DNA of 64,000 nucleotides from Candidatus Omnitrophota bacterium (GCA_028865345.1 JAGWKL010000005.1:21577-85576), one strand, 5' to 3'. Numbered from the stretch's first letter, positions 2,230-52,609 are shown. Translations and numbers: made by a program. The notes: generated by a model from the sequence alone, not told the origin.

Positions 2230-2921
2230 TGAGGACCGCCGTCATGTCCCCAAGTCGGTGTCTCACAATGGTATTGTGCCTTTGCCTGCCGGCCCTGCAG
2301 GGCTGCACCGCGCTGACTCCGCCGTCGTTATTCAAGCTGGGCCCTTCAATCTCCCAAGCCGTTATTGTCCATCCCGTCGCCAAAAATTCCATCCACGCCG
2401 GATTAAGCGCCTGGCAGAAAACCCATGCCGGGCAGGGAGCGGGGAATGGAGGCTGGCGCCGCATATTCTTTGTCAGGGCTCTCATCGGTAAAAACGGCTT
2501 GGCTGATCCCGGCCGCAAGAAAGAAGGGGACGGTAAGACCCCTTGGGGGGTTTATCCTTTGGGGCCCGCGTTCGGTTATGCCCCGTCGGCAGTTACAGGA
2601 CTGCCTTACCGCCAGGCCACGGATATTGATTTTTGGGTGGATGATCCGCGTTCAATGCAATATAATCAATGGGTCAGAGGTACGCCCCGTGCCCATTCTT
2701 TTGAACGCCTCAAACGCCCGGATGACCTTTACCGGTATGGGGTCGTTATTGGGTATAATATGCACCCGGTCATTCCCGGCGCAGGGAGCGCCATTTTCAT
2801 GCATATTTGGCGGGGAGGCGACAGCCCCACTGCGGGCTGTGTGGCTTTGAGTCAAAGGAATTTGCGCAGGATCCTGCGCTGGTTAAATCAACGCGATCAA
2901 CCTGTCATTATCCTGGAGTGA
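2229..2921 (+). CDS. L,D-transpeptidase (YkuD-like) lipoprotein.
   Basis: Lipobox LPALQGC and a YkuD catalytic region (IFMHIWRGGDSPTAGCVAL, a His...Gly-Cys triad). Confidence 0.6.
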   Translation: MRTAVMSPSRCLTMVLCLCLPALQGCTALTPPSLFKLGPSISQAVIVHPVAKNSIHAGLSAWQKTHAGQGAGNGGWRRIFFVRALIGKNGLADPGRKKEGDGKTPWGVYPLGPAFGYAPSAVTGLPYRQATDIDFWVDDPRSMQYNQWVRGTPRAHSFERLKRPDDLYRYGVVIGYNMHPVIPGAGSAIFMHIWRGGDSPTAGCVALSQRNLRRILRWLNQRDQPVIILE

Positions 2922-2925
2922 ATCG

Positions 2926-3201
2926 ATGACCAATGCACAAATGATCAACACAGTCTTAAGCACGTACGGGCTTTCCAATTTTATGGGCCCGGGCGGTTTT
3001 AATTGGTGGAACATTATCTGGGGGTCCATTTTCGGCCTGATCGGCTGGCTGGCTTTCTCACATGGTAAAAAAGAAAGGAGCTTCAGGCCGATGGTGATAG
3101 GCATTGTGATGATGGTTTACACGTTTTTTGTGGCCAATACATGGCTGGTCTTTCTCATCGGCTTAGGACTGACCGCCGCGCTGTATTTTTGGAGAGAATA
3201 A
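2926..3201 (+). CDS. Small hypothetical membrane protein (91 aa, 2-3 TM).
   Basis: The ORF has hydrophobic helices and fits tightly between flanking genes. Confidence 0.4.
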   Translation: MTNAQMINTVLSTYGLSNFMGPGGFNWWNIIWGSIFGLIGWLAFSHGKKERSFRPMVIGIVMMVYTFFVANTWLVFLIGLGLTAALYFWRE

Positions 3202-3203
3202 CT

Positions 3204-3863
3204 ATGAGCCCGAAAATTTTACGATTTGCCGTTATATTAGGCGGCTGCGGCAATAAAGATGGCGCTGAAATCCATGAATCCGTCCTGACGCTTCTTAGTA
3301 TCGACCGCCATGGCCATCGGTACCAATGTTTTGCGCCCGACGTGCCGCAGGCCCGTGTCCTGAATTTTTTGACCAACGAACCCATGAATGAAAAACGCAA
3401 TGTGCTTCTTGAGGCGGCCCGCATTGCGCGCAGTAAAATCAAACCCCTGTCCGATTTTGCCCAAAAGGACTTTGACATCCTGGTCCTGCCTGGCGGCAGC
3501 GGGGTGGCGTATAATCTTTGCACTTTTGCCGTTGATGGTGATAAAATGACGGTTTTACCGCAGGTGGAATCGGCCCTGCGGGCCATGCATGCTGCGGCCA
3601 AGCCCATCGGGGCCTGGTGCATTGCGCCGGTCATCATTGCCCATGTCTTGAAAAAGGTCACGGTGACCTTCGGCCGGGACGAGAAGACCGCCGCGGTCTT
3701 TCGGAAATCGGGCGCGACAACCGTCAATACTGATGCCCGGGGGCTTGCGGTCGACCACGACAATAAGGTCGTGACCACCCCGTGTTATATGCTCGATGCC
3801 CGCATCAGCGAGGTGGCGGAAGGCATAGATAAAGGCATTCAACAACTGATCAAAATGGTGTGA
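3204..3863 (+). CDS. elbB: Isoprenoid biosynthesis protein ElbB (DJ-1/PfpI class-I glutamine amidotransferase-like).
   Basis: N-terminus MSPKILRFAVILGGCGNKDGAEIHE is typical of ElbB. The ATG at 3204 follows the stop of the upstream gene. The ORF track's 3141 start is unlikely. Confidence 0.7.
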   Translation: MSPKILRFAVILGGCGNKDGAEIHESVLTLLSIDRHGHRYQCFAPDVPQARVLNFLTNEPMNEKRNVLLEAARIARSKIKPLSDFAQKDFDILVLPGGSGVAYNLCTFAVDGDKMTVLPQVESALRAMHAAAKPIGAWCIAPVIIAHVLKKVTVTFGRDEKTAAVFRKSGATTVNTDARGLAVDHDNKVVTTPCYMLDARISEVAEGIDKGIQQLIKMV

Positions 3864-8613: not shown

Positions 8614-10290
8614 ATGTCTGATATCAGAAAGTTCTCCCGTTTGGTTGTCGACGGCAATGACCGCGCACCCAACCGGTCCATGCTGCGCGCCACCGGGTTC
8701 AAGGATGAGGATTTTGGCAAAGCCCAAATCGGCGTGGTTTCCACCTGGAGCATGCTCACCCCCTGCAACATGCACATTGATAAATTGGCCGCCAAGGCGG
8801 TGGAGGGGGTTGACGCCGCCGGCGGCAAGGGCATCATTTTCGGCACCATCACCGTGGCCGACGGCATTTCCATGGGCACCGAGGGCATGAAGTATTCCCT
8901 GGTTTCCCGCGAGGTGATCGCGGATTCCGTGGAAACGGTCGCCGGATGCGAAGGCTTCGACGGGCTGGTGGCCGTGGGCGGCTGCGACAAGAACATGCCC
9001 GGTTGTGTGATCGCCATGGCCCGCCTGAACCGTCCGTCGGTGTTTGTTTATGGCGGCACCATTTTGCCCGGCTGCCTGCATGGACAGAACCTGGACATCG
9101 TTTCCGTATTTGAAGCGGTTGGCAAACATGCCGCCCGGAAAATTTCCGACCAGGAATTAAAAGATATCGAAAGCTGCGCCATACCGGGTCCCGGTTCATG
9201 CGGGGGGATGTACACGGCCAATACCATGGCCAGCGCCATCGAGGCTCTGGGCATGAGTCTTCCCAACAGCTCCATGCAAATTGCCGTGTCCCGGGAGAAA
9301 CAATTGGATTGTTTTAATGCCGGCGCCGCCGTCCTGGATTTATTGAAACGGAATCTCAGGCCCCGCGACATCATGACCAAAAAAGCTTTTGAAAATGCCA
9401 TTTGCGTGGTCACCGCCTTGGGCGGATCGACGAATGCCGTTTTGCATCTCATGGCCATTGCCCATGCGGCAGGCGTCAAATTAAACCTCGATGATTTCAC
9501 CCGCGTGAGCAAAAAAGTTCCGGTGTTGGCCGACCTTAAGCCCAGCGGCCGTTTTGTAACGGCGGAATTGGCGGCCATCGGCGGGCTTTTGCCGTTGATG
9601 AAAATGCTTTTGGACAAAGGCCTGTTGCACGGCGAGTGCATGACCGTGACAGGAAAAACCATGCGTGCCAATTTAGCTGATGTCAAACCATACCCCGCGG
9701 GCCAAGAGATCATCAGGCCGTTGGATAACCCCATTAAGAAGGAAGGCCATCTGGTCATTTTATATGGTAATCTTGCTCCTGAGGGTTCGGTAGCCAAGAT
9801 CACCGGCAAGGAAGGGTTGTCTTTCAGCGGGCGGGCCAAGGTTTTTGATTCGGAAGAAAAGGCGCTCAAAGCCATATTAGGCGGCAAAATTGTCAAGGGG
9901 GATGTGGTAGTGGTCCGCTATGAAGGCCCCCGCGGCGGTCCCGGCATGCGCGAGATGCTTTCTCCCACATCGGCCATTGCGGGCCGGGGACTCGGCAAGG
10001 ATGTCGCCTTGATCACCGACGGGCGGTTTTCCGGAGGTTCACACGGTTTTGTGGTAGGGCACATCACGCCCGAGGCTTTTAACGGCGGGCTTTTGGGTAT
10101 CGTCAAAAACGGCGATACCATCACCATTGACGCCGTCAAAAGGCAGATCGATCTTCTCCTCCCTGCGGCGGAAATCAAGAAGCGCCAAAAAGCCTGGGAA
10201 GCGCCAAAACCAAAATATACCCGCGGTGTCTTGGCCAAGTACGCTAAATTGGTCACCAGCGCCTCCAGTGGTGCAGTGACGGACAAATAA
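8614..10290 (+). CDS. ilvD: Dihydroxy-acid dehydratase.
   Basis: Matches the IlvD/Edd family throughout (CDKNMPG, SGGSHG). The ATG at 8614 comes straight after the leuD stop. Confidence 0.93.
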
Positions 10291-12738: not shown

Positions 12739-13772
12739 CATTCATGATGAGGATATTCTTTTTTACCGGATTCATGTTTTTAAGCGCTTTGTCTGCTTAT
12801 GCCCAGACGGCCGGAGAGTATAACAATCAGGGCTTGGCGGCCCTTCGCTGTGGCCATGCCTCTGCTGCCATTGTCGCGTTCACCAAGGCGATCGCTATCG
12901 ACCATCATAACGCACAAAGCTATACGGACCGCGCCCTTGCTTTTGCTGAATCGGGCCGTTGGACCGATGCTGTTTCAGATGCCGACCACGCCATCAAGCT
13001 GGCCCCCCGGCTGGCCGTTGCTTACAATAACCGGGCCACCATCGAGGCGGCCGAGGGCAAGGCGCCTGATGCCCTTGCCGATCTGGCCATGGCCATTGAA
13101 TTGGCCCCCCGGGACACAGGATGTTATAACAATCGGGGGATTATTTATTATAAGCTGGGCAACTTTCCTGCCGCCATTTCCGATTATACCAAGGCCATCG
13201 GGATAGACCCCGGATATGTGCCTGCTTATGCCAACCGCGGCAAAGCTTACGCCAAGGAAGGTGATCTTACCGCCGCCTTGACGGATTACAATAAAGCCAT
13301 TGAAATAAAACCCGGCGATGCGTTCCTTTACAGGAACCGGGGCCTCATTTATATCAAAAGCGGCGATCTTACCGCCGCCAGGACTGATTTCAGCAAGGCC
13401 ATCGGCATGGACCCCAAAAATACGGCTGCCTATTTTATCCGGGGGACCATTTATTACAAGCAGGGGGATTTCACCGCTGCGGTCGCTGATTTCAGCCAAG
13501 CCATCAGCCTTGATCCCGTTGACGCCAAAAGCTATATGAACCGCGGCCTGACCTTCCTGCGGATCAATATGCCCCGGCAGGCCATTGCCGATCTGGTCAA
13601 GGTGACACAATTGGACCAAAGGTTCACAAGGGCCTATTATAACCTGGCTGTGGCCTATTATAAGCTCAAGCAATACGATAAAGCCTGGGAGTATGTGCAC
13701 AAGGCCCAGAGGCTGGGTGTCACCGTCAAACCGGCATTTATGGAGGCGCTCAAAAGCGCTGCCCGCAAATGA
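12735..13772 (+). CDS. Secreted TPR-repeat protein.
   Basis: Signal peptide followed by about 8 tandem 34-aa TPR units (AYNNRG..Y..A..D). Confidence 0.8.
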   Translation: MTFMMRIFFFTGFMFLSALSAYAQTAGEYNNQGLAALRCGHASAAIVAFTKAIAIDHHNAQSYTDRALAFAESGRWTDAVSDADHAIKLAPRLAVAYNNRATIEAAEGKAPDALADLAMAIELAPRDTGCYNNRGIIYYKLGNFPAAISDYTKAIGIDPGYVPAYANRGKAYAKEGDLTAALTDYNKAIEIKPGDAFLYRNRGLIYIKSGDLTAARTDFSKAIGMDPKNTAAYFIRGTIYYKQGDFTAAVADFSQAISLDPVDAKSYMNRGLTFLRINMPRQAIADLVKVTQLDQRFTRAYYNLAVAYYKLKQYDKAWEYVHKAQRLGVTVKPAFMEALKSAARK

Positions 13773-14386
13773 TCGTCGATTGTGGTCAATATACCGCGGA
13801 CCAGATGTATTTCCTGCTGATCCAGCTTGTCATTCCAAGGCCCGTCGCGTGGGTGCTTTCCGACAACGGCAACGGCACCCATAATCTGGCGCCGTTCTCC
13901 TTTTTTAATGCTATCACCGCCAACCCGCCCATTCTGATGATCTCCGTCGGGTGGAAGGACGACAAGCTTCACAAGGACACCTGGGTCAATATCGGCGAGC
14001 GTTCTCATTTTGTGGTGCACATTCCCCGCGGCGGACAGGTCCATGACGTGAGCAACAGTTCGTCCGTTTTGCCGCACGGCGTTTCTGAAATCGAAACCTT
14101 CGGCATTGCCACGGAGTCCCCGGAAGGCTGGCCGCTGCCCAGGGTCACGGGGGCCGCTGTCGCCTTTTGTTGCGAAAAGTACGCCATTTATGAAATAGGC
14201 CGTGATCCCCAAGGCCTCATCCTGGGCAAGATCAACCGCATTTGGATCGACGAGGAAGCGGTCAGCCGGTCCAATAACCGCATTGTCATTGATCCCGCGA
14301 AAATCGATCCTCTGGCGCGTTTGGGGGGCAATCACTATGCGCTGTTGGGAGAGATCCTGACCGTCAAGCGACCGGATAAACCGTAG
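13769..14386 (+). CDS. Flavin reductase-like (FMN-binding split-barrel) protein.
   Basis: RPVAWVLS...NLAPFSFFN is the flavin reductase domain signature. Confidence 0.7.
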   Translation: MIVDCGQYTADQMYFLLIQLVIPRPVAWVLSDNGNGTHNLAPFSFFNAITANPPILMISVGWKDDKLHKDTWVNIGERSHFVVHIPRGGQVHDVSNSSSVLPHGVSEIETFGIATESPEGWPLPRVTGAAVAFCCEKYAIYEIGRDPQGLILGKINRIWIDEEAVSRSNNRIVIDPAKIDPLARLGGNHYALLGEILTVKRPDKP

Positions 14387-14436
14387 GTAGCATCAAAGGT
14401 TCTATGAAAACGCATGGTGAATATGGAGGGCATAAC

Positions 14437-14540
14437 TCCTTGCGCCAAGGTATTGGGCTTCCCAACACTTTGTTTGGCCGTACTCGTTGACAATCGGATG
14501 TGGAAGGCTGGGATGAACCTTGGCTTAAGGAGTTATGCCC
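14437..14540. repeat. Imperfect 22-bp inverted repeat enclosing about 60 nt. It forms part of a structured intergenic region.
   Basis: GGCATAACTCCTTGCGCCAAGG pairs with CCTTGGCTTAAGGAGTTATGCC. Confidence 0.5.
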
Positions 14541-14585
14541 CCCATATCCTCTTGGAATATTTTATGAAAACCATATCGGCGGGTG

Positions 14586-14635
14586 GCTCGGAATTGATGT
14601 TGCCGAGCGCACGGCAACATCAATTTCGAGCCAGG
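14586..14635. repeat. Long near-perfect hairpin (about 22 bp with one bulge).
   Basis: TGGCTCGGAATTGATGTTGCCG-AGCGCA-CGGCAACATCAATTTCGAGCCA. Confidence 0.5.
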
Positions 14636-14701
14636 ACCCGTCGCGAATGGTAAGTTATCGGGATTTTTGACAGTACTAAACCGTAAACAGGGAGGGTGAG
14701 T

Positions 14702-14857
14702 ATGGCTCAGAAGAAAGTCACTGTTTTCAAAATCAAAAACCGTAGCGGTTTTGCCGCCGTGTGCGATGGGCATTTGACCGAGGGCTCAAGCAAAGAGCAG
14801 GCGTTGGCCCGCATGGCAAAAGCGTTGAAGCGCACGTCCAGGAAAAAAATACGTTAA
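14702..14857 (+). CDS. Small basic hypothetical protein (51 aa).
   Basis: Strong SD AGGGAGGGTGAGT before the ATG. It is absent from the ORF track because it is under 60 aa. The sequence MAQKKVTVFKIKNRSGFAAVCDGHLTEGSSKEQALARMAKALKRTSRKKIR has no recognisable family. Confidence 0.35.
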   Translation: MAQKKVTVFKIKNRSGFAAVCDGHLTEGSSKEQALARMAKALKRTSRKKIR

Positions 14858-14941
14858 AAAATCTGGGAACCAGGTTGCTTTTTACTCATAGGGCTCCTAT
14901 ACTTTAAATGATATGTTTTATATCTTAAGGAGGAGAAGCCT

Positions 14942-16795
14942 ATGAGCATGTTCGACAAGAACATCAGCGCAGAGAAGCTCAAGAGCCTCGAGTTTGCAGA
15001 AAGCGCCCGTGAGCAGGAATGGAAGGCTCCCAGTTTTGCCCTCAAGCTTTTTGGCGGTTCCCTCGATTTTAATTTGATCCACCCTTTCCCGCAACAGGAC
15101 CCCGACGATAAAAAAGCCTGCGACGCGTACATGGCCCGGATGGAAAAATTCCTGCGGGAAAATCTGAATCCGGATGAAGTGGACAAGACCGGTGAGATCC
15201 CTTCCAAGGTTTATAAAGGTCTGGCCGATCTTGGTGCTTTTGCCTTGAAAATACCCAAAGAATACGGCGGCTGCGGTTTCAGCCAGTACAGTTATAACCG
15301 CATCATGCATTTGATTTCCAGCTATTGCGGCTCGACCGCGGTCCTGCTTTCCGCGCATCAATCGATCGGCGTCCCCCAGCCTCTGAAACTTTTCGGGACG
15401 CCTGAACAAAAGAAAAAGTATCTGCCCATGTTTGCCAAGGGCGCCGTCTCGGCCTTTGCCCTGACTGAGCCCGAGGCCGGTTCCGACCCGCGCAACATGA
15501 GCACCACCGCAACTCCGACGGAAGACGGGAAGTTTTTTTTGCTCAACGGCACCAAGCTCTGGTGCACCAACGGCCTTATTGCGGATGTGATGGTGGTCAT
15601 GGCCGTGACCCCGCCCAAGATCGTCAAGGGCAAAGAGATCAAGCAGATCACCGCTTTTATCGTCGAAGGCGCGTATCCCGGCATTGAAAAGGTCCACCGT
15701 TGCAGTTTCATGGGGCTGCATGGCATCCAAAACGGCCTTATGCGTTTCAACAATGTCAGGGTGCCCCGTGAAAATATTATTTTAGGCGAAGGCGAAGGCC
15801 TGAAGCTGGCCCTGATGACGCTCAATACCGGCCGCCTGACCCTGCCGGCCGCATCGACGGGCATCGGCAAATGGTGTTTGAACGTGGCCCGCCAATGGGC
15901 CGCCAAGAGGCATCAGTGGGGTTCTGCCATCGGAGAACATGAGGCCGTGGCCTTAAAATTGAATTATATCGCTTCTCATACCTTCGCCATGGACGCCGTA
16001 ACATGGTTGACCTCGGCGATGGCGGATGATAAGCGCCGTGATATCCGTCTGGAAGCGGCCATCGCCAAACTTTTCTGCACAGAGGTTTCCTGGCAGATCG
16101 TTGACGCCACTTTGCAGATCCGCGGAGGGCAGGGTTATGAGACATCGGAGTCCCTCGCCAAACGCGGCATGGACTACTGGCCCGTGGAAAGGGCCATGCG
16201 CGACGTGCGCATCAACCGCATCATCGAAGGCACGTCGGACATCATGCACCTGTTCATCGCCCGCGAGGCCCTGGACCCGCATTTGTCCAGGATCAAGCCC
16301 TTACTGAGCGGCAAGGTGGCGCTTAATGCCAAAATGACCGCCGCCCTTAAAATGGTCGGGTTTTACGCAGGATGGTATCCGGGATTATGTCTTCCGTCGC
16401 TGACCGCTGGCCCGGAGGGCGGCCTGCCGCGGCCCCTTAATGAGCATATGGCCTTTGTCCGCAAGGCAAGCAAGAAGCTTGCCCGCCTGACATTTCATGC
16501 CATGATGAAACACCAGCAGAAACTGGAAAGCAAGCAAAGCATCTTAAACCGCATCGTGGATATCGGCATGGAATTATTTGTGATGTCGGCGGTATGTTCC
16601 TATGCCCAAATGCTGGCCCGGGAGACTCAAGCCAATGCCGTGGAGCTGGCGGACAGTTTTTGTGCCGATGCCGCAAACCGCGTCAATGCTTCATTTCAGG
16701 AGAGCGCTGAAAACGTCGACGGCAAGAAATTAGAAATAGCCAGGAGGATTCTGGCCCGTGAATTTGAGTGGATGGAGAACCAGATCATCAAGTGA
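14942..16795 (+). CDS. Acyl-CoA dehydrogenase (long form with a C-terminal extension).
   Basis: Contains the ACAD N, middle and C domains (TEPEAGSDP; IEGTSDI). The SD is AAGGAGG. Confidence 0.85.
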   Translation: MSMFDKNISAEKLKSLEFAESAREQEWKAPSFALKLFGGSLDFNLIHPFPQQDPDDKKACDAYMARMEKFLRENLNPDEVDKTGEIPSKVYKGLADLGAFALKIPKEYGGCGFSQYSYNRIMHLISSYCGSTAVLLSAHQSIGVPQPLKLFGTPEQKKKYLPMFAKGAVSAFALTEPEAGSDPRNMSTTATPTEDGKFFLLNGTKLWCTNGLIADVMVVMAVTPPKIVKGKEIKQITAFIVEGAYPGIEKVHRCSFMGLHGIQNGLMRFNNVRVPRENIILGEGEGLKLALMTLNTGRLTLPAASTGIGKWCLNVARQWAAKRHQWGSAIGEHEAVALKLNYIASHTFAMDAVTWLTSAMADDKRRDIRLEAAIAKLFCTEVSWQIVDATLQIRGGQGYETSESLAKRGMDYWPVERAMRDVRINRIIEGTSDIMHLFIAREALDPHLSRIKPLLSGKVALNAKMTAALKMVGFYAGWYPGLCLPSLTAGPEGGLPRPLNEHMAFVRKASKKLARLTFHAMMKHQQKLESKQSILNRIVDIGMELFVMSAVCSYAQMLARETQANAVELADSFCADAANRVNASFQESAENVDGKKLEIARRILAREFEWMENQIIK

Positions 16796-38683: not shown

Positions 38684-38784
38684 CAATCCTCGGGTGGCCG
38701 AGGGAGGGGCATCCCCGCCGAGCGCAGGCTTTTGCGAGCACGGCGGGGAAACCCGAGGCCAGGCCCCGAGGCTTAGGAGACCTT

Positions 38785-52491: not shown

Positions 52492-52514
52492 CGACGATCA
52501 AAATATAAAGAAAT

Positions 52515-52560
52515 AAAGCCCATCTCCCTTTGAATATCATTGACGAGATGGGCTTTTTTA
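52515..52560 (+). terminator. Rho-independent terminator after rpsI.
   Basis: AAAGCCCATCTC....GAGATGGGCTTT stem followed by TTTTTTA. Confidence 0.8.
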
Positions 52561-52609
52561 TTTATTATAAACGGATTCATCAAAAGGCTTGTTTGCCGAC
52601 GAGGACCAT

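Follow-up and report, generated by a model that had tools for sequence, protein, structure and literature searches.

A structured spacer in a Candidatus Omnitrophota operon probably represents an insertion of nested, hairpin-forming mobile repeats

The window analyzed here is a 64,000-nucleotide (nt) stretch of DNA, one strand, from a Candidatus Omnitrophota bacterium (GCA_028865345.1 JAGWKL010000005.1:21577-85576). It contains a strongly structured spacer between a flavin-reductase gene and a small open reading frame (ORF) of 51 amino acids (aa), which is followed by an acyl-CoA dehydrogenase (ACAD) gene. The original prediction, made from this sequence alone, took the two long imperfect palindromes of the spacer for a candidate small RNA (sRNA) or cis-regulator of the small ORF and ACAD or, alternatively, for an element resembling a miniature inverted-repeat transposable element (MITE). 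Comparison with related loci and metagenome contigs indicates that the spacer is probably (we put the probability at about 0.7) a recent, lineage-specific insertion of nested, hairpin-forming mobile repeats, which is non-coding and is not an ancestral regulatory region. We refer to the whole inserted block as M, to a segment nested within it as N, and to a dispersed element, of which the spacer holds a truncated copy, as X. Feature coordinates are collected in Table 1; the other loci compared are designated by L numbers.

The 9-mer TAAACCGTA occurs on either side of M as an exact direct repeat (shuffle p ~0.008, and likewise for the corresponding locus L020 described below). When positions 14386-14676 and one copy of the repeat were removed, the reconstructed empty site read GATAAACCGTAAACAGGGAGGGTGAGTATG, which closely resembles the uninterrupted junction of the relative L013. 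The third base of the flavin-reductase stop codon TAG (14384-14386) is supplied by the insert, and the ribosome-binding site of the small ORF survives the insertion intact. At the same junction in relatives, the distance from the flavin-reductase gene to the 51-aa ORF is 4 nt in L013 and 33 nt in L009/L010; L008 has 93 nt there, of unrelated sequence, and L011/L012 lack the flavin-reductase gene, with the small ORF directly following the dehydrogenase. BLAST found none of the window's spacer sequence in the L008, L009/L010, L011/L012 and L013 loci, all of which keep the small ORF and the dehydrogenase. In the sister strains L001 (GCA_028870875.1) and L007 (a Logan contig), M is 370 nt long, with the element corresponding to the second palindrome still complete.

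A second M-like block, 367 nt in length, was found at an unrelated locus on a peat metagenome contig (L020), where a separate exact 9-nt repeat, TAGAATAAA, borders it on both sides. The left end common to the two blocks reads GGyAGnnTCAAArGTTnTATGAAAACnCATGG (26/32 identical), and the blocks also share, in order, a long inverted repeat in the corresponding place, the leader GAATnTnTTATGAA..CAT.T directly ahead of X, and the tail end TTTTGA. Because the L020 block has the same architecture together with a flanking repeat of its own, M has inserted on two or more occasions with duplication of 9 nt. The MITE-like alternative offered by the original prediction was essentially right, as 9 nt of the reconstructed empty site are duplicated around the block and the second palindrome belongs to a dispersed family. 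Dispersed copies and target-site duplications, which the same prediction had named in advance as findings that would refute a structured RNA, were both observed.

These comparisons bear directly on the possibility that the spacer acts on the 51-aa ORF and ACAD as a locus-specific regulator, either an sRNA or a 5' leader. Its position directly 5' of the small ORF and its very stable fold would suit such a role. However, none of the relatives with the small ORF and the dehydrogenase has it at this junction, and a 78-nt insertion or deletion lies inside it among strains of one species. A scan of 14200-15000 revealed no sigma-70-like promoter, and the terminator-like sites there were weak, with only one inside the spacer. 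An Rfam scan of the spacer returned only miRNA hairpin models far below threshold; no Rfam 15 family matched the whole window at gathering thresholds, and ARAGORN detected neither tRNA nor tmRNA. The original prediction had matched the region by eye to none of RNase P, SRP, tmRNA, 6S RNA and the common riboswitch cores. With the second palindrome being a decayed repeat that elsewhere occurs near unrelated genes, the proposed regulator did not hold up: it is largely refuted by the comparative data, and we regard it as very improbable.

Both palindromes, as described originally, are far beyond chance. The first, inverted repeat 1, had been noted with 22-nt arms, which lie at 14429-14450 and 14518-14539 with 2 mismatches and extend to 31 nt; the extended arms are 90% complementary and enclose 65 nt. 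The second, hairpin 2, had been noted as a near-perfect hairpin of ~22 bp and consists of 25-nt arms (14584-14608 and 14609-14633) that are 92% complementary and directly adjacent (spacer 0). They are the longest two inverted repeats of the whole window, and each arm sequence matches only the arms of its own palindrome there (≤3 mismatches; 0 expected by chance). Relative to shuffles, the fold of the 316-nt spacer had z-scores of -8.1 (+ strand) and -9.5 (- strand). The 79-aa (+) and 82-aa (-) ORFs over this region, already suspected of being a palindrome artefact, encode the mirrored peptides ELMLPSARQHQFRA and KLMLPCARQHQFRA, and neither has a Pfam match.

The origin of hairpin 2 became apparent from strain comparison. 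L001 and L007 carry 78 extra nt between its arms, with the 10-mer GCACGGCAAC on both sides, whereas GCACGGCAAC occurs once in the window, in L002 and in L003; the strain assemblies otherwise encode identical proteins. Linked single-base differences accompany the two forms, so that the long and short hairpin 2 represent two real haplotypes. A 21-nt arm pattern scanned over a metagenome collection gave 17 matches, 11 of which lie in a conserved element of ~145 nt whose flanks are wholly different each time. Because these 11 elements match the L001 form end to end despite their differing flanks, the long form is ancestral. Loss of 78 nt between the 10-nt repeats brings the arms of the long stem next to each other and thereby yields the near-perfect 25-bp palindrome, which is therefore a secondary product of an internal deletion, something that the original prediction could not see.

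A covariance model (R1) was built from ten long copies of this element, X, and it picked up further, divergent copies (Table 1). Altogether, 16 X copies of 85-153 nt were found in Omnitrophota contigs, with two copies each in the 64-kb window, the 10-kb L021 and the 14-kb L017. The second copy of the window belongs to a short, 85-nt subfamily and, on the same strand as both neighbors, occupies almost all of the 101 nt between a 404-aa ORF, taken from its sequence to be ispG, and a 355-aa ORF, taken to be an M42-type peptidase; exact-protein look-ups found neither protein on record. The short copies of L013 and L017 are near-identical to it, occupy other loci, and show compensatory changes in the closing stem. 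R1 gave 0 matches in 415 kb of unrelated viral contigs, and X arm plus interior patterns gave only chance matches in IMG/VR, all of which were rejected by the covariance model.

The flanking genes of the metagenome copies were assigned by reading ORF translations and not by a family scan. X sits mostly between co-oriented housekeeping genes (Table 1), and its orientation follows that of the flanking or downstream gene in 13 of 15 copies (two-sided binomial p ~0.007, worked by hand), both exceptions lying downstream of rplQ. Four orthologous junctions could be compared in filled and empty states, namely flavin reductase / small ORF, ACAD / patatin, gyrB / gyrA and dciA / gyrB. In L021, which is placed in Omnitrophica by those GyrA relatives that bear names, X occupies the gyrB-gyrA and dciA-gyrB spacers; in L076-L078, whose GyrA proteins are 87-91% identical to that of L021, the same spacers measure 11-18 nt and are without X. 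Likewise, 3 nt separate the ACAD and patatin genes in the window, whereas L013, which conversely is without the window's insertion, has an X copy between them. X thus appears, from these sequence comparisons, to be mobile on an evolutionary timescale. A comparison of L021, where the spacer is filled, with L076, where it is empty, points to a decayed ~8-9-nt duplication of ATAGAAAGG.

Two X copies showed further rearrangements. In L017, the short copy lies in frame and without stops within a 368-aa ORF (2236-3342), contributing the linker QRVAEGGASPNARSEARTFGETRRQDPL between what are, by eye, an N-terminal part resembling aldolase II and a C-terminal part resembling SCP2; this is either an in-frame insertion like that of the Rickettsia palindromic elements or an X-caused fusion of two genes. 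A protein search with the in-frame translation of the short X gave no candidates. In L027 (1455-1495), the 3' end of X is partly duplicated, with GACAGGACCCGAT occurring twice, 8 nt apart, as a second example of a slippage-type rearrangement.

The structure of X is conserved while much of its sequence is not. The 5' base CGGGUGGC and the 3' base CAG-G(A/C)CCC-G are kept in all copies, with L022 carrying CAGTATCCG, and in most copies motifs of the AGCGCA / GAGCA type flank the long stem at its inner end, L017b and L077 carrying variants of them. Taken together, the halves of X make up one long imperfect inverted repeat. The long stem of X occurs as four unrelated sequences, each of them self-complementary (UCGGAAUUGAUGUUGCCG with CGGCAACAUCAAGGCCGAG, GAGUAGCGGCGUUCAGG with CCUGAAUGACGCGACGAGC, GCCUAUAUGUUUGUUC with GAACAAACAUAUAGGUGC, and CGAGGGAGGGGCAUCCCCGCCG with CGGCGGGGAAACCCGAGG), and the outermost stem covaries as GCGGG/CCCGC, AUCGGG/CCCGAU, CCUCGGG/CCCGAGG and CAACGGG/CCCGUUG. 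In the 16-sequence alignment (A6), 85.7% of the cells pair and 14 of 27 pairs show changes on both sides; none of 500 shuffles came up to these values, and in slid controls 2-7 pairs were changed on both sides. The apical domain, ~10 to ~80 nt long, branches in the long form. Two long copies, L020 (644-796) and L024 (1078-1230), have a common 10-nt insertion (AGCGAAGCGC / AGCGTAGCGC) just 5' of the conserved AGCACGGC, which could restore a short inner helix like that of the short form.

Folding energies favored the sense strand in 9 of 16 copies and so favor neither strand consistently, for which reason the structure can be read as RNA or as DNA. Rfam searches of ten full-length X loci returned nothing at E ≤ 0.1 inside X, and focused scans of two stretches at E ≤ 10 returned only noise; a literature search on Omnitrophota repeats or structured RNAs yielded nothing relevant. 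Several other identities were considered and rejected. As a small-peptide gene, X would have an inconsistent start codon and frame-shifting indels; coding is ruled out by the indels between copies, which measure 1, 10 and 78 nt. A hammerhead-like core reads CUGAUAG instead of CUGAUGA and has no Rfam match, a retron msr/msd is opposed by the absence of a reverse transcriptase gene nearby, and an invertible promoter by the same orientation of the interior in all assemblies.

The main rival to a mobile repeat is that X is a functional structured RNA selected at gene junctions, for example a small self-cleaving ribozyme, a platform for protein binding or an intercistronic element for processing or stability; its spread and covariation would then be due to RNA function and not to selfish mobility. 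Its terminal motifs are invariant and its inner-loop motifs recurrent, while its stems are hypervariable yet covarying; the apical length variation is like that of many RNA families, most copies are oriented with their genes, and one-sided stem changes mostly give G-U pairs on the sense strand. Nevertheless, the neighboring genes have no common function, the orthologous sites of close relatives are empty, which makes X dispensable, and the window copy tolerates the loss of its whole apical domain. Moreover, one copy lies in frame within a 368-aa ORF, the sense fold is the more stable one in little more than half of the copies, and the Rfam ribozyme and motif models give no match. We consider an RNA function of this kind unlikely. 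The same base motifs, together with a 3-nt bulge, variable complementary stems and a top of variable length, give X an attC-like layout, and the hairpin is about equally stable on either strand. X could accordingly be viewed as a structure-specific recombination or protein-binding site acting at the DNA level, as a folded single strand or cruciform, in the manner of attC or REP hairpins, and the hairpins of the spacer would be sites of this type; the orientation bias could then be a replication-strand bias, with several copies lying near dnaA, dnaN and gyrB. Against this, the attC boxes RYYYAAC / GTTRRRY are absent from both strands, the flanking genes are syntenic core genes and not cassettes, and the fetched flanks, a few kb per locus, showed neither an integrase nor an HUH-type gene, so that we rate a DNA site of this type as quite improbable.

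Given its covarying stems, the dispersed family may nonetheless play a structural part, either as RNA or as single-stranded DNA. As a tentative proposal, which we consider rather unlikely, X may be an undescribed, Omnitrophota-specific recognition module defined by structure, in either nucleic acid, with a dedicated protein reading its base and inner-loop motifs and its tandem G-A mismatches. This reader could be a hairpin-specific transposase or recombinase that places X one way between co-transcribed genes; alternatively, an RNA-processing factor or a ribozyme core could cut polycistronic mRNAs at X.

Within M, segment N holds inverted repeat 1 and is bracketed by a second 9-nt direct repeat, TATGAAAAC, from which the arms lie 9 and 15 nt inward. 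In L020, TATGAAAAC and TATGAAC occupy the matching relative places and enclose a 26-nt inverted repeat of unrelated sequence (GGCTGACACCGATAT...). This arm, with its flank CTCATGGAC, occurs again in L024 and, as variants, twice in L075; because of this recurrence, the L020-type N arm belongs to a multi-copy inverted-repeat family. We read inverted repeat 1 as a nested small inverted-repeat element, and this is the weakest part of the reconstruction. L075 also contains a block of ~1.3 kb (8696-10000) in its gyrB-gyrA spacer, with a GIY-YIG nuclease gene, a 119-aa ORF, several palindromes GTCATTCCCGCGAAAGCGGGAATCC and arms of the GGCTGACACCGATAT family; the block is flanked by direct repeats of ~26 nt (AAGAATTTrGACATTTAGCATTA). 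The GyrA of L075 is 95% identical to that of L021, and the gyrB-gyrA spacer in three other relatives measures 11-17 nt.

Several observations weigh against an insertion of mobile repeats. No transposase or recombinase partner was identified, and local alignment of the M ends for terminal inverted repeats scored no better than shuffles. The ends of M in the window and L020 are offset by 2 nt on the left and 6 nt on the right, and only two copies of M are known, in different genomes. Copies consisting of X only have decayed flanking repeats of 6-9 nt at best and no consistent duplication. The arms of inverted repeat 1 were found neither in IMG/VR nor by a fuzzy search of the fetched Omnitrophota loci, and their pattern gave one single-arm chance match (an Oscillospiraceae metagenome-assembled genome) among 185,579 species-representative genomes; inverted repeat 1 is an orphan, since no other copy turned up in any of these three sets. 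Finally, the orientation bias of X and its stem covariation would fit a selected RNA function as well.

On balance, an insertion of nested mobile repeats remains the reading that we prefer. The comparisons show that an M block of ~370 nt landed in a tight junction of a conserved Omnitrophota operon, duplicating 9 nt of the target (TAAACCGTA), and that 78 nt were later lost from its X copy between two 10-nt repeats. The mechanism is less direct: an enzyme making 9-nt staggered cuts would have mobilized the elements in trans, and the deletion may have arisen by replication slippage. X would be recognized by its hairpin shape together with CGGGUGGC / CAGG(A/C)CCCG and the inner-loop motifs of the AGCGCA / GAGCA type. 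The hairpins would be co-transcribed in the operon mRNA and would form at most an incidental intercistronic structure there, for example a processing or stability site, instead of a dedicated regulator.

Table 1. Features of the spacer and its surroundings in the window, with further copies and sites of X. Positions without an L number are those of the window.
Feature	Location	Strand	Remarks
Flavin_Reduct gene	13769-14386	+	
Left copy of 9-nt direct repeat TAAACCGTA (putative target-site duplication)	14377-14385	+	overlaps last flavin-reductase codons
Composite element M (probable insertion)	14386-14676	+	291 nt
Inner direct repeat TATGAAAAC, copy 1	14403-14411	+	9 nt
Nested segment N, holding inverted repeat 1	14412-14562	+	151 nt, bracketed by TATGAAAAC
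Inverted repeat 1, left arm	14421-14451	+	31 nt
Inverted repeat 1, right arm	14517-14547	+	31 nt
Inner direct repeat TATGAAAAC, copy 2	14563-14571	+	9 nt
X copy, long subfamily, with 78-nt internal deletion (hairpin 2 with its outer extension)	14577-14644	+	model R1: 71.5 bits, E = 1e-13, 78 positions skipped
Deletion junction, single GCACGGCAAC	14609-14618	+	two copies bracketing 68 further nt in L001/L007
3' tail of M, ending ...GGGATTTTTGACAGTAC	14645-14676	+	
Right copy of 9-nt direct repeat TAAACCGTA	14677-14685	+	intact GGGAGGG next
51-aa ORF	14702-14857	+	preceded by ribosome-binding site GGGAGGG
ACAD, 617 aa	14942-16795	+	
X copy, short subfamily, 85 nt	38688-38772	+	R1 21.7 bits, E = 0.006 with filters off
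X copy	L021 8050-8192		R1 56.8 bits
X copy	L077 4277-4406		R1 42.7 bits
X copy, short, 85 nt	L013 5094-5178		R1 28.2 bits
X copy, short, 85 nt	L017 2794-2878		R1 24.1 bits
X site	L021		gyrB / gyrA
X site	L021		gene 3' of dnaN (DciA in orthologous loci) / gyrB
X site	L015		thyA / folA
X site	L022		two transhydrogenase alpha genes
X site	L027		CoaB-like gene / apgM
X site	L013		ACAD / patatin
X site	L077		upstream of dnaA

The genes around the spacer are as originally described, with the flavin-reductase gene upstream and the ribosome-binding-site-preceded 51-aa ORF and ACAD downstream. The complete order on the + strand is chorismate synthase, short-chain dehydrogenase, TPR protein, flavin reductase, spacer, 51-aa ORF, ACAD and cNMP-binding patatin. 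The 51-aa protein has 47 relatives among database clusters, and those that bear names are Candidatus Omnitrophica; the ORF is therefore a genuine conserved small gene of Omnitrophota. Its product, MAQKKVTVFKIKNRSGFAAVCDGHLTEGSSKEQALARMAKALKRTSRKKIR, is rich in lysine and arginine and belongs to no Pfam family, and the ORF lies just 5' of the 617-aa ACAD gene in all fetched loci. In L008 (3287-5144; a 1.29-Mb contig of ERZ25039480), ACAD is called as four overlapping fragments of 82, 185, 280 and 105 aa, which suggests either frameshifts by sequencing error or a pseudogene. Elsewhere in the window, a 24-nt inverted repeat with A-rich and T-rich flanks at 52503-52568 (ATATAAAGAAATAAAGCCCATCTC ... 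GAGATGGGCTTTTTTATTTATTAT) resembles a bidirectional intrinsic terminator.

These results have consequences beyond the single locus. The structured spacer 5' of the small ORF and ACAD is read as an insertion scar and not a regulator, which removes a false lead. Small mobile palindromic repeats are documented here in Omnitrophota, an uncultured phylum for which we found no such description in the literature, and X constitutes a family, missing from Rfam, whose motifs are conserved and whose stems covary. Such elements inflate intergenic regions and create spurious ORFs, can split operon transcripts, and mark strain-level variation, as the 78-nt indel does. If a dedicated enzyme does recognize folded X, as RNA or DNA, the family would offer an entry to a new mobilization or RNA-processing system.

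To our knowledge, the sequences of X and M are similar to no described repeat family, and they have no Rfam match; BLASTN of the 370-nt element against plasmid and phage collections gave no match either. The comparison with known systems concerns architecture. Like the Correia/NEMIS elements of Neisseria and the enterobacterial ERIC/IRU elements, M and X are small, non-coding, hairpin-forming and dispersed, and lie in intergenic positions within operons. The likeness extends to filled and empty sites among relatives, target-site duplications of M, and nesting or clustering in the same spacers. In contrast to those families, M combines its 9-nt duplication with no detectable terminal inverted repeats, no parent insertion sequence was identified, and X is kept by covarying stems and not by a conserved terminal repeat sequence.

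The REP/REPIN system, which is mobilized by RAYT (a REP-associated tyrosine transposase of the HUH Y1 type), resembles X in its intergenic hairpin units of tens to ~100 nt, its coexisting subfamilies and its short conserved base motif. Copies from one metagenome sample are most alike (L020, L021 and L022, by eye), which is REPIN-like as well. However, X is larger, with an apical domain of up to 80 nt, and forms one long hairpin with a branched top instead of a REP doublet; the base of its hairpin (CGGGUGGC / CAGG(A/C)CCCG) has no GTAG, and the fetched flanks revealed no RAYT gene. We know of no report that REPs make 9-nt duplications. The Rickettsia palindromic elements are likewise palindromic repeats of 85-150 nt that can sit in frame in genes, as X does at L017 2794-2878; they differ in that most X copies are intergenic, with one in frame, and in that the sequences are unrelated and come from another phylum. 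The integron attC sites share with X a variable sequence on a conserved hairpin, base boxes, bulged bases, a variable top and a fixed orientation between co-oriented genes. This is a structural analogy only: the 16 X copies have CGGGTGGC ... CAGGMCCCG bases (or the complement on the other strand) and no R''/R' boxes, and X lies between syntenic core genes instead of cassettes, with no integrase found nearby.

DDE transposition of the IS1, IS4 and IS903 types generates 9-bp target duplications. The exact 9-nt duplications at two independent M insertions, and the further 9-nt repeat around N, recall these insertion sequences, but M is without matching terminal inverted repeats, and no gene for a transposase was identified, so that the link consists in the duplication length alone. 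Of the features of MITEs, M shows the size, the duplications and the filled and empty sites but not the terminal repeats. M (291-370 nt), N (151 nt) and X (85-153 nt) are all small, under ~600 bp, and the ORFs of the spacer are palindrome artefacts; M is bounded by duplications (TAAACCGTA in the window, TAGAATAAA in L020) and N is bracketed by TATGAAAAC; and filled and empty sites were observed at four junctions. By comparison with known systems, the elements of this spacer are nested, small mobile palindromic repeats of a MITE/REPIN-like kind.

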